DNA of 64,000 bases, from positions 1,793-65,792 of the forward strand of contig VFFB01000001.1 in NCBI GenBank assembly GCA_018882585.1, written 5' to 3'. This DNA comes from Candidatus Kapaibacterium sp. Its GTDB lineage: Bacteria > Bacteroidota > Ignavibacteria > Kapaibacteriales > Kapaibacteriaceae. Of this stretch, positions 2,766-14,035 are shown piece by piece (position 1 is the first letter of the stretch; each line of letters opens with the position of its first letter). The translations under genes and the position numbers were made by a program. Under the pieces are notes generated by a model. It did not search any database. It had not been told where the DNA came from and saw only the letters and a program-made list of their open reading frames with translations.

Positions 2766-5700
2766 ATGGACCGACACTTGCTGCGGATCGACGCCCTGCG
2801 ACGGCAGACGATCCCGCGCATCGAGGCTGCACCGCGCGAGCTCCTTGATGTGGTAACACGCCCCGATCGCCACGTGGTGTCGCGTCGCCGTGCCCTTGGT
2901 ATCGCCGGAGCACTTTCGGTGACGGCTGCCCCGCTGGCCCGCGCCATGAGCAGCATCTTCCGACAAGACTGCACGATGATCCGCCGCGGCCGCGCCATCG
3001 TCTTCCTCGTTGCCAACGTCGAACGCTGGGTGATCGACCCGGACATGTTCTCGGGCGATCCACGCCTGGAGGTCGACCGGAGCGAAGACTCGATCGCAAT
3101 CTCCCTTCGCGGCGCCCTGTATCCGGGGACCAACCTTCCGGCCGATCTGACGTGTCGCATTGGTACTGCGGGACGTTGGACGGCGACGTTCGAACGAGAT
3201 GGTTTCACGTCGCCCCCTGTTGACATGGTGGAGTGGTTGCTTGACGCGGCCGTCGTTGCAATACCTGCGCGGCAGGCTGTAAGCATTCGCTGCACCGAGG
3301 CATTGCTGCATGTCACAACGAACGATGTGCGGTTCCGGCCGTCGTGGACGCTGCACCTTGCCGGCACCACAACGATGCAGACCGGACAACTGCGGCTTGC
3401 ATCAAACGGCATCGACGTGGCACTTCCTGCACGGCAGCGTTCCACGATGTTCTCGAAGAAACCGGCTAAACGCTCCGTCGTCCGTGTTGCCCGCGACGGC
3501 CACGCATGGACGATCCCGCTGTCGCTGCAGGGCCTGCCCGCGTGGAAGCTTGGCATTGCCGACGATGCCTTCGACAGCTTGAGCATCGAATGCAGCGACG
3601 ACGGACGCGCAGCGTTTGCCCTTGAAGGTAGCCGCGACGGTGGAGTAGCCTTTGTCCACCGACACGTTTCGTCGGCCATACGTCTGCGCAACGTCCGCTA
3701 TGCATGGTCACGCGGCGACAATGGTCTGCACGAGGCCCTGGTTGCCCGCTACAGCAACGCATCGGAGTGGTTGCACTTCGACGGCATCAACATCGAGATC
3801 GGTGACCGCTCCGAGATCCCGCCGCTCGAGATCACGAGCGTTAATGGCGAAGTCACCCGCATGAACATCGCTCCGGGCATGCTGCGCTACAGTGTTCCTG
3901 TCGATGGCGCCATCACCGAGCCTACGTCCATGCCCTCGGGCTCGCAGCTTGCGTTCATCACGGCTGCGGTTGCCACCAAGGCTCTGCCCAAAGCCCATTT
4001 CCACATGGCTGCCGTGCAGATCGATGCCCAGGCAGGCATCATCAAGCAGATCGAGACAACAAAGAAGCTGCCAACAGGTAAACCTCGCTCCGTCAATGTC
4101 CGCAAGAGTCTTGGCGTGCTAAAACCCGGTGCTGTAGCACTCGCGGGAAATCCTACCATCACCGTGATCCGTCCCGAAGACCTGATGGTCCTGACCTTCG
4201 AGTTCATGGGCATCACGCTGAACAAAGCCGCGGGCACCTTCACAGCCGGTGGTAACGCCAAGCTGATCGTGCATTTCCAGCCACAGCATATCGCCGAGCG
4301 GGCCTTCTTCACCACGCAGGAGAAGCCCAATACCGACGAGATCAGATCGCCGTCGAATCCGGCACAGGCAAAAAAGAATCTTCCGCAAGGGGCAACGGAC
4401 GAACCGTTGCTGGACCCGCCGATCGACGCGGTGATGGCCCACGGCTCGCGCCTGGTACTGCGCGTTCCTTCGGGATATACAGGCTTCCTTCGCGTGACGC
4501 CGCCGCCCGACGCCGATCCCTTGGTGCCGTCCAAGATGCTGCTGGATTGGTCTGCCTTCACGATGCACGTTTCGCCGTCGGCAAAGCCGCCTTCGACGGG
4601 ACTTGTCTTCGGCATGCTGTCGGGCGCTTTCACCACGAAGTACACGGCCTCGTTCGCCGACAAGGGTCTTAACACCAAGCCCGTACGCAGCGTCGGCACC
4701 AAGGGCGCAACCTTCACGCGTGGCGTCAGCAAGCGGTCGTACAAGGCCCCTTCCGTGACCCTGAATGTCGAGGGGGAACGGGCACCGCTCACGAATTACA
4801 TCAAGGCACAGATCGACACGCAGCCCGACATCATGGCTGCCGTTCCTTCGCCCTGGATGCAAGAGATCGTGGCTGCCGCCAACCAGAAGCCGCCGATCCG
4901 CGAACCGCTGGCAGACGAGACGGCCATTGAGTATCCGTACCGTCTGATCATGTCGCCCAACAAGTATGCCGGCTGGGCACATACACAGGCGCCGGCCTGG
5001 GGCAAGGACCTTGCCGAGAATGTCACGCGCCGTGTCGAACTGTGGCACACACGTCTTGGCGTCAAACACAGCGACGGTCGCGTGAGCGAAGAGGCCGCCT
5101 ACCTGCGGACGATGCGGGCCATCTGGACGCCCGATATCAACACGCAGCGAACGCTGGACGCCAAGTACATGGAGCGGCCGTTCCGTACGTCGCTCAATCG
5201 TCGTGACCGCTGGGAGCTGGTACGTCTGATGTCGGACTATGCCATGGCCACCAAGACGGCCCCCATGGAAGTACGCCGGTTTATGATGTCGGCGCTTGGC
5301 GCCTGGGCAGATATGACGGGTGTGTGGGATCCGCTGGGCGAAGATGGCCTTGATGTGGAACAGTGGATCCAGCGAGGTGCCCAGGGTCGGGACCACTTTG
5401 TACGCATTTGCTATAAGGGCTATCTGTTCCCCTTCGGACATCGGGCGACGCTTGTGAAGGAGACCGAGCGGAAGTTCCGGCGGACGCCGCGTGGCGATAT
5501 GGCTGCCTATCTGCTGCAGCGGCTGTATATCATCCTGCGGCAGCCCCTTCGGGAATTTCCGGCCGACGGCTTGCAAGGCCAGAAGTATCAGGGTCGCGAC
5601 TTCCCCTTCCGCAGCGTCGTTATCACGACCAAGACAACACCGAACCTGAACCTTCCGGTCAAGCTGCATCCAAGTCTCTCGCCCAACTCCTTCTGGCCGC

Positions 5701-13721: not shown

Positions 13722-14035
13722 AGGCCGATAAACTTTTCGAAGAACTCACGTCACTTGCCAAGAGTCTGGGCTACAGCGTCCGCCGCGAAACAGGCACCTT
13801 CCGTGGCGGCGGTTGCGTCGTTCATGACCAGCGCCTTATCATCGTGAACCGCTCCATGCCTATCGAAGCCGCCTGCGTGATCGTAGCCCGAGCCTTGTGT
13901 CGGATGGTCGGTACGGACGACACCTTCATGAAGCCTGCCGTGCGCGACATCCTGCAGCGCGAGCGTGACTACATCCAAGCGCATCCCGACGTTGAGATCA
14001 ACGTGCAGCGCAGTGAGGCGGCAGACGCTGCATGA
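13718..14035 (+). CDS. Small hypothetical protein (105 aa), translationally coupled both upstream and downstream.
   Basis: ATGA overlaps at both ends, with the membrane-protein stop and with the era start. It opens with a K/E-rich helical N-terminus (MKADKLFEELTSLAKSLGY) and has normal codon usage. Confidence 0.45.
   Translation: MKADKLFEELTSLAKSLGYSVRRETGTFRGGGCVVHDQRLIIVNRSMPIEAACVIVARALCRMVGTDDTFMKPAVRDILQRERDYIQAHPDVEINVQRSEAADAA

Follow-up and report, generated by a model that had tools for sequence, protein, structure and literature searches.

Gene content of the locus

The window analyzed here comprises 64,000 nucleotides from a Candidatus Kapaibacterium genome (positions 1,793-65,792 of contig VFFB01000001.1, forward strand), and all coordinates below are window positions. 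Near its left end lie two consecutive genes for giant proteins, here called G1 and G2, which an original prediction from the sequence alone had placed at the head of a five-gene operon running into era. Listing and translation of the open reading frames (ORFs) recovered all six plus-strand ORFs, era included, as they had been described:

2766-7901, plus strand: G1, first giant protein, 1711 aa
7916-12145, plus strand: G2, second giant protein, 1409 aa, no signal peptide, immunoglobulin (Ig)/FN3-like sandwiches in the modelled 1199-residue tile
12142/12145-13146, plus strand: membrane-anchored SRPBCC/GyrI-like protein, 334/333 aa, PF10604
13170/13185-13721, plus strand: polytopic membrane protein (4TM), 183/178 aa, 3-4 hydrophobic helices
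13718-14035, plus strand: small ORF, 105 aa, no known family
14032-14940, plus strand: era (GTPase Era), housekeeping neighbour, 302 aa, NF000908 1.7e-99

The tight packing into era is real: G2 and the SRPBCC gene either share a GTGA or, if the latter starts at its ATG, abut, 23-38 nt lie between the SRPBCC and 4TM genes, and ATGA overlaps are found at the 4TM/105-aa and 105-aa/era junctions. G1 and G2 do not overlap; here a 14-nt gap containing GGAG separates the G1 stop from the G2 ATG. This start of G2 is ATG 7916, not TTG 7883, and its 93%-identical homologue P0027 is likewise 1409 aa long. Since full-length homologues share the lengths of 1711 and 1409 aa, we can rule out that the giant frames are frameshift or assembly artefacts. 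Both have a native composition, as had been claimed: GC/GC3 is 0.61/0.77 for G1 and 0.63/0.77 for G2, inside the range of the housekeeping genes in the window. The assignment of Era is firm (332.8 bits against an NF000908 cut-off of 237, with PF07650 (KH_2) present).

Upstream of G1 lies a divergent intergenic region of 204 bp (2562-2765, no strand), which holds a TTGACA-N18-TATTTC element and a GGAGGA located 3 nt before the G1 ATG. The sigma70-like element is indeed present at 2697-2726, but the promoter scan makes no call there and shows no excess of promoter-like sites for the region (2 vs. 3.5 expected). With nothing beyond chance, the element was rejected as promoter evidence.

A widespread pair of giant proteins

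G1 and G2 are, in all probability, the two core subunits of a widespread and undescribed module, translationally coupled nearly always in the order G1 to G2. A G2 relative follows G1 on the same strand in 75 of the 78 loci, drawn from more than 12 phyla, that offer at least 1.5 kb after G1. Stop and start of the two genes are typically 18 nt apart (median of 53 loci). The locus scan was based on a 12-sequence alignment; a 29-sequence alignment had no stretch conserved enough. Three loci form the exceptions, namely L026 and L038, which belong to one subtype, and the short L079. In the L026/L038 subtype of G1 (L038: 7706-12769, 1687 aa) no G2 is detectable downstream, and a 572-aa ORF comes next in L038.

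The family is large. A HMMER search with G1 residues 700-1711 returned 4064 representative clusters (50%-identity representatives) at E<=1e-3, of which 2040 at <=1e-30 with about 900-1800 aa, while protein lengths in the family range from 900 to 2900 residues. Scanning one genome per species, we found G1 relatives in at least 572 genomes. They cover more than 12 phyla, including Kapaibacteriota, Chlorobiota, Bacteroidota, Acidobacteriota, Actinomycetota, Alpha-, Beta- and Gammaproteobacteria, Verrucomicrobiota, Chloroflexota, Gemmatimonadota, Myxococcota and others. Close homologues of the giants occur in metagenome-assembled genomes (MAGs) of Kapaibacteriota, Ignavibacteria and Chlorobiota. 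Some contigs labelled as Didemnitutus, Bradyrhizobiaceae, Hyphomicrobiales and Alphaproteobacteria MAGs (L013, L015, L016, L020, L032, L035) show a Kapaibacteria/Chlorobiota-type synteny and are probably mis-binned; their G1 is 56-63% identical to that of the window (34-35% in L032 and L035), and they carry the same RCC1 and barrel-like partners (see below).

Copies on plasmids or chromids were found in the Bacillus cereus group, Rhizobium, Sinorhizobium, Cupriavidus, Streptomyces and Agrobacterium, all annotated as 'hypothetical protein'. Furthermore, the pair stands alone among unrelated genes in Sabulicella (insertion sequence (IS) elements on both sides), Nocardioides, Methylorubrum (integrase-like neighbour), a Pseudomonadota MAG, a Bacillus bombysepticus plasmid and C. 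metallidurans CH34. Viral sequences yielded next to nothing, as no G1-family match was obtained in 50,697 phage records and a single one in 2.9 million viral contigs. This lone match (L101, IMGVR_UViG_3300004093_000021) contains a G1 relative of 39% identity and is possibly a misclassified bacterial contig.

On the Bacillus bombysepticus plasmid CP126687.1 (L008 8401-10093), the pair is closely preceded by a DUF1906 (Rv2525c-like) gene and by one for a small papain-like cysteine protease. BLAST of both neighbours against all collected proteins and loci gave no match. The pair of C. metallidurans CH34, formed by Rmet_4688 and the gene after it (L007 9743-20093, corresponding to about 1315262-1325612 of the chromid NC_007974.2), begins 168 bp after rsqA and thus directly downstream of rpoQ-rsqA. 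These are metal-responsive ECF16 (extracytoplasmic function) sigma/anti-sigma genes, for which the transcription start site TSS_1315237 was published 24 bp upstream of rpoQ; it corresponds to L007 position 9743. A published transcript from TSS_1328724 on the opposite strand would run antisense through the region of the pair. Published CH34 work names Rmet_4688 only as the neighbour of rpoQ-rsqA and reports no function for the two genes. We regard this adjacency as a lead that stands outside our model. A general control of the pair by ECF sigma factors was rejected, as their genes are adjacent in CH34 and some loci of the Fibrobacteres-Chlorobi-Bacteroidetes (FCB) group, yet unconserved across lineages.

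Domains and models of G1 and G2

The following parts can be distinguished in G1:

2766-2945, plus strand: N-terminal extension with putative Tat-type (twin-arginine translocation) signal; S39-R-R-R-A-L-G, hydrophobic region, A-R-A at residues 58-60
4890-6122, plus strand: central conserved beta-rich domain, residues ~709-1119; family signature including GRDHFVR-x4-GYLFPFGH-x5-K-x-TERKF
6540-6863, plus strand: coiled coil, residues ~1259-1366; long helices in the model, source of spurious matches
6873-7820, plus strand: C-terminal beta domain, residues ~1370-1685; ~18 long amphipathic strands, modelled as a porin-like beta-barrel

The original prediction had seen no known domain or catalytic family in the giants, and this was borne out. 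Neither G1 nor G2 found a family in Pfam, NCBIfam, PHROGs, PADLOC or the sequences of the PDB, and coiled-coil noise was all that these searches returned. A placement of both giants in a well-characterized family, which would have overturned that view, does not exist. The weak matches of G1 (Apolipoprotein, ZorA, LeoA, tape-measure, FlaX) fall nearly all on the coiled coil at residues ~1190-1430. When family profiles were run against PDB sequences, G1 again produced this noise and G2 had no match at all. Used as a profile on the protein database, the G2 alignment brought in just two more sequences, and a Pfam scan of 29 diverse G1 relatives revealed no family across the conserved cores. No Pfam or NCBIfam match to AsmA or DUF490 (TamB) was found in G1, G2 or these 29 relatives. 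Pfam likewise detected no SLH domain in G1, and no feature of type V secretion (two-partner secretion, Omp85/POTRA, autotransporter barrel) in G1, G2 or the ~650-aa partner described below; CdiB, FhaC and EspP appeared in fold searches as generic barrel matches only. G1 and G2 lack the RHS/YD cocoon of TcB/TcC, the TcA-type channel and VRP1/SpvB domains, and no domain specific to the beta-pore-forming toxin families (aerolysin/ETX-MTX2, MACPF/CDC, leukocidin, Toxin_10) was detected in them. No functional data on giants of Kapabacteria or on Rmet_4688 of C. metallidurans turned up in the literature searches.

Pairwise alignments delimit the conserved parts of G1 to residues ~716-1250 and ~1385-1711, the N-terminal ~700 residues being optional. 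An AlphaFold model of residues 700-1711, built on an alignment of 27 sequences, reached a mean pLDDT of 70.9. The central beta-rich domain is modelled with confidence (pLDDT 80-96) and the linker poorly; long helices occupy tile residues 560-667, and ~18 long strands occupy 671-986 (pLDDT ~65-85). Thus the model confirmed the earlier description of the C-terminus as a coiled coil followed by an amphipathic beta module. With this model, Foldseek retrieved porins at a probability of 0.95 but a TM-score of ~0.3, along with very weak matches to SlpA, microsomal triglyceride transfer protein, P47 and LptD. Among the listed matches, none is attributable to the well-modelled central domain. Kyte-Doolittle analysis gave no membrane helix in G1 apart from a hydrophobic beta hairpin.

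The putative export signal of G1 is confined to long variants. Long variants share a common N-terminal extension followed by a twin-arginine motif, e.g., ISRRGFLGVGGAALGA, NRRQFLGWTGTAALGA and GRRNFVKAMGLG; that of the window protein reads SRRRALGIAGALSVTAAPLARA and occupies the same position. With a TIGR01409 cut-off of 16.7 bits, relatives at 17.3 and 20.4 pass, and two at 16.1 and 13.3 fall short. Short variants (Streptomyces, Bacillus, CH34) are without the N-terminal domain and without any signal. The beta domain at the other end is conserved in relatives from Bacillus, Streptomyces and Nocardioides, genera without an outer membrane. Because of its Tat-type motif, the lack of an aromatic beta-signal at its C-terminal end (...EYCDSFA) and the retention of the beta domain in monoderms, G1 is unlikely to be a substrate of Sec and the beta-barrel assembly machinery (BAM), and its beta domain rather resembles a soluble-to-membrane module. 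The classical features of a BAM barrel, i.e., Sec signal, aromatic C-terminal beta-signal and restriction to diderms, are all absent from G1.

For G2, residues 212-1409 were modelled with a mean pLDDT of 76.4 (335 residues at >=90) as a chain of Ig/FN3-like beta sandwiches, and the fold search returned the S-layer match 7ptp. No catalytic fold was recognized in the models of either giant. Kyte-Doolittle analysis found no hydrophobic helix in G2, and a signal peptide is never present. Its N-terminus, MPSQxIxWTALPNG...LRLSVxVSPRL, is conserved from residue 1. Relatives carry fusions to extracytoplasmic domains: PG_binding_1 and Big_3_5 occur on relatives of G2, and an Rv2525c-like glycoside-hydrolase domain occurs on a relative of G1 (P0196). 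The latter fusion and the Rv2525c-like neighbour on the Bacillus plasmid hint at a link to the cell wall.

Two partners on the opposite strand

The set of partners proposed in the original prediction missed two conserved ones that lie upstream on the opposite strand. One is the product of the gene next to G1, which starts at 2561 on the minus strand behind a GGAGG of its own and leaves the window at the left edge:

1773-2561, minus strand: N-terminal ~260-aa domain of the upstream protein; Sec-type signal peptide, no Pfam match
1-818, minus strand: RCC1 beta-propeller repeats of the upstream protein; PF25390 5e-78, PF00415 4e-49

A '490-aa ORF' at 531-2003 on the plus strand was rejected as a gene; it is an arginine-rich spurious frame, and the real gene is the one on the minus strand.

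All ORFs within 7 kb of the pair were clustered for 87 loci, and only two neighbour families recur outside the close clade, which we define by a G1 at least 54% identical to that of the window. The first is the 260-aa domain. It is 39-46% identical over residues 1-263 in loci where G1 is only 32-39% identical, and its cluster spans 29 loci. In the clade of the window it is encoded divergently upstream and fused to RCC1; a stand-alone version of ~360 aa without RCC1 lies upstream on the same strand in seven loci (L004, L025, L028, L029, L032, L035, L041), and in others the gene is found downstream of G2 (L021-23, L037, L043, L050). The second is a ~650-aa protein with a signal peptide, a coiled-coil insert and the C-terminus ...SRSW or ...STRW, whose gene adjoins that of the 260-aa domain or directly follows G2 in 26 loci. 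In the window clade it is located beyond the RCC1 gene and thus off the left window edge. It has no Pfam (POTRA/Omp85 included) or PDB family and is unrelated to G1 (hhalign probability 2%); from its sequence we infer an outer-membrane barrel. The two partners occur solely in lineages of the FCB type and allied diderms. Since their linkage to the giant pair outlasts rearrangement, it argues for a functional coupling.

Insertion/deletion block next to the era backbone

The proposed five-gene functional unit did not hold. More than 70 loci outside the close clade have G1 and G2 without SRPBCC, 4TM, 105-aa gene or era; none of these four was detectable near the pair in distant loci. The close clade keeps the whole neighbourhood, including the RCC1 gene upstream and YfiO, 4HBT, T9SS-plug (type IX secretion) and RuvB genes downstream, which is ordinary synteny.

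Four relatives from metagenomes allow a comparison with loci free of the giants. L090, L091 and L094 encode PPIase/SurA, 4TM, 105-aa protein, Era and YfiO in that order, and L096 has SurA-105aa-era-YfiO with no detectable 4TM. All four lack the giants, the RCC1 gene and the SRPBCC gene, and their 105-aa proteins are 58-76% identical to that of the window. In contrast, the order in L103 (G1 77% identical) is SurA, 664-aa (minus), RCC1 (minus), G1, G2, SRPBCC, 4TM, 105-aa, era. The giants are thus part of an insertion/deletion block, and 4TM and the 105-aa gene are backbone genes of era, because three giant-less relatives keep both beside it and the fourth keeps the 105-aa gene. This also disposes of the suggestion that these two small proteins serve as carrier and immunity partners of the giants. 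In a distant relative (L098 7467-8246, 105-aa protein 39% identical), the pair of 4TM and 105-aa genes is kept with no era homologue within 8 kb, so they may form a unit of their own. In the lineage of the window we are confident that a four-gene block (~650-aa gene, 260-aa-domain/RCC1 gene, G1, G2) lies inserted between SurA-like genes and 4TM-105aa-era. The organization is accordingly best described, and very probably correctly so, as a two-gene core with two envelope partners in this lineage that together form an accessory indel block.

The SRPBCC gene is a looser neighbour. Its SRPBCC domain stood up as predicted (PF10604 1.9e-16, residues 31-177), while the GyrI-like part is a weak match only (0.013); a GyrI-like match is on record for the L001 orthologue. 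By Kyte-Doolittle analysis the protein has one N-terminal helix, and the 178-aa 4TM protein has 3-4 hydrophobic helices. The SRPBCC gene is present in 10 of the 15 giant-bearing close loci, in none of the four giant-less ones and in no distant locus. It is missing in L016, L017 and L089, and L009 has none of the four accessory genes within 5.6 kb. Furthermore, the G2/SRPBCC junction is a variable spot, where 2.4-3 kb are inserted in L010 (17326-20304), L020 (17280-19677) and L093 (3447-6425). The SRPBCC protein may thus be loosely tied to the giant block, but it is no universal component of it.

Possible function and alternative explanations

The envelope location suggested in the original prediction is likely. 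The Tat-type motif, the fusions to PG_binding_1, Big_3_5 and Rv2525c-like domains, and the DUF1906 and papain-like neighbours point to a place outside the cytoplasm; the motifs are observed, and export itself is deduced from them. Of the roles envisioned earlier, that of a large membrane-inserting toxin may yet prove right; a membrane-inserting complex is what we favour at low confidence, and no toxin family was found. Tentatively, the pair may encode a horizontally mobile accessory complex that is exported and inserts into a membrane, akin to a pore-forming toxin or a delivery system and unlike a housekeeping machine. According to this proposal, G1 would fold in the cytoplasm and be exported via the Tat pathway. 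G2 might leave bound to G1 by hitch-hiking, because it lacks a signal peptide while its N-terminus is strictly conserved; in monoderm hosts a signal-independent route would be required, for which giant signal-less secreted toxins provide a precedent. The coiled coil and the ~330-residue amphipathic beta domain of G1 would then enter a membrane and form a porin-like barrel there, bypassing Sec and BAM. The Ig-like chain of G2, as a co-exported scaffold or binding subunit, could form the exposed or binding part together with the central domain of G1. An accessory trait for competition or host interaction fits the patchy, plasmid- or island-borne, indel-type distribution: the block is an indel polymorphism among close relatives, and other relatives are found on plasmids or chromids, between IS elements or beside an integrase-like gene.

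The Tc/ABC and large clostridial toxins resemble this picture: they are accessory, frequently reside on plasmids or islands, are encoded by adjacent genes for proteins above 1000 aa, and combine a membrane-inserting part with a binding or scaffold part. Like them, the short G1 variants and all G2 lack a signal. Unlike these toxins, the giants show neither an RHS/YD cocoon nor a TcA-type alpha-helical channel, glucosyltransferase and protease domains are missing, Pfam finds no toxin family in them, and the insertion module of G1 is a predicted beta-barrel. Several further points weigh against a toxin-like complex. A toxin, enzyme or receptor-binding family was detected nowhere in the 3100 aa of the giants, and neighbour clustering revealed no small immunity-like gene that is consistently adjacent. 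Whereas the tips of polymorphic toxins vary, the C-terminal domain of G1 ranks among its best-conserved regions. The Tat motif of the window G1 gets no TIGR01409 match. The barrel exists as an AlphaFold model only (27 sequences, pLDDT 65-85) that may or may not be closed, and its Foldseek TM-score is ~0.3. The export of G2 is something we purely infer, and given the signal-less short G1 variants and all G2, the location may be cytoplasmic in monoderms. Finally, the literature holds no experimental phenotype for any family member.

The main rival is a non-toxic envelope or surface assembly, which we consider conceivable but rather doubtful. Here, G1 would be tethered by its coiled-coil stalk and barrel in the manner of OmpM/SlpA, G2 would form an Ig-type surface layer or adhesin, and the ~650-aa and RCC1 proteins would act as anchors or assembly factors. 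Veillonella OmpM1 and Deinococcus SlpA are envelope proteins with a coiled-coil stalk followed by a C-terminal porin-like barrel, a layout that G1 may share according to its model, and weak Foldseek matches to both were obtained (8ae1 for SlpA, E 1e-3; 8bys for OmpM1). The Ig/FN3 content of G2 with its S-layer match, the PG_binding_1 and Big_3_5 fusions, and the occurrence of secreted and outer-membrane-barrel-like partners in diderm FCB lineages are in line with such an assembly as well. However, the layout of these tethers is seen in the G1 model only, with its shallow alignment and weak Foldseek scores (TM-scores to SlpA are 0.11), and there is no sequence similarity to them. G1 has neither an SLH nor another wall-anchoring domain, carries a putative Tat-type instead of a Sec signal, which is atypical for an integral outer-membrane protein, possesses ~1250 extra N-terminal residues including a unique conserved domain, and has an obligatory giant partner. 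Moreover, the family and its beta domain occur without an outer membrane, in monoderm Bacillus and Streptomyces, and the patchy, indel-type, plasmid-borne distribution would be unusual for a structural component. Bridge-like lipid transfer or envelope remodelling, also part of the original prediction, is improbable. It would turn the beta domain of G1 into a hydrophobic groove to which the SRPBCC/GyrI-like protein hands over its ligand, and it could explain why, in the close clade, the SRPBCC gene occurs only in giant-bearing loci (10/15 vs. 0/4). The structural matches it draws on (microsomal triglyceride transfer protein at E 1e-4, botulinum P47, LBP, LptD) are very weak, with TM-scores of 0.06-0.12 and probabilities of 0.08-0.54. 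TamB/AsmA proteins share with the giants their size, beta-rich nature, amphipathic strands and envelope location, and the giant of the translocation and assembly module (TAM) is paired with an outer-membrane barrel protein. G1, though, is a multi-domain protein without an N-terminal membrane anchor, its coiled coil interrupts what would have to be a continuous beta-taco groove, it matches no AsmA, DUF490 or TamB family, and its ~650-aa partner shows no POTRA/Omp85. In addition, the SRPBCC gene is absent from more than 70 distant loci and some close ones, and the family is present in monoderms with their single membrane.

Two further explanations deserve very little credence, as the comparative data contradict both. 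A true five-gene operon tied to era, with a role in ribosome or envelope biogenesis, would account for the same-strand packing with overlaps and for the order kept in close relatives; yet giant-less relatives keep 4TM-105aa-era (105aa-era in L096) directly after SurA, the insertions in L010, L020 and L093 separate G2 from the SRPBCC gene, and distant pairs never adjoin era. Co-transcription may occur all the same, yet it would be read-through and no sign of shared function. Equally remote is a phage-derived tail-like module or an anti-phage defence system. It is suggested by weak matches to PHROG tape-measure and tail families (E>=0.0056) and to ZorA, LeoA and LmuB of PADLOC (E 2e-4 to 0.08), but all of these fall on the coiled coil of G1 (residues 1190-1430, E 2e-4 to 0.08 in total), NTPase and nuclease domains are lacking, no phage genes were noticed beside the pair in the examined loci, and the phage and viral collections contain practically none of these proteins (0/50,697 phage genomes, 1 in 2.9 million viral contigs). 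The remaining probability belongs to functions outside the readings named here.

We rate the module as lying outside the known kinds, since neither giant shows the defining feature of any family at the whole-protein level and the resemblances are architectural only; sensitive profile searches or complex modelling might link single domains to known superfamilies. That it represents a new, phylum-spanning class of two-component envelope machine, in which folded export (Tat in diderms) would be combined with a single-chain barrel independent of Sec and BAM and with an Ig-domain partner that guides or scaffolds it, is an idea we consider unlikely. Were this idea to hold, bacteria associated with soil, sediment and plants as well as plasmids of the Bacillus cereus group would possess a hitherto unrecognized means of forming pores or delivering cargo. 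Insertion of a Tat-exported barrel would challenge the view that large single-chain beta-barrels need Sec and BAM, and might reveal a new toxin or delivery principle. If not, the family would still be among the larger blind spots of bacterial envelope biology: with ~4000 clusters in more than 12 phyla, and nearly always partner-locked, it lacks a family model, a structurally solved relative and any reported phenotype. What seemed a single odd operon has become a defined module with a minimal composition (G1 core and G2), lineage-specific envelope partners and a probable export route, and tractable hosts are at hand in C. metallidurans CH34, Bacillus cereus-group plasmids, Streptomyces and Rhizobium.

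Other features of the window

No tRNA or tmRNA gene and no Rfam family at the gathering threshold was found in the whole 64 kb. The product of a third giant ORF, located on the minus strand (41637-46598, 1653 aa), is an M12 reprolysin-like metalloprotease that also contains CARDB and two laminin-G/ConA-like domains; it has no relationship to either G1 or G2. On the plus strand, 33699-36482 and 36564-39485 are tandem paralogous genes for outer-membrane proteins of the CarboxypepD_reg and OMP_b-brl_3 type. At the right edge (62236-63987, minus strand) lies the C-terminal part of a bacterial alpha-2-macroglobulin with bMG10 and TED domains.

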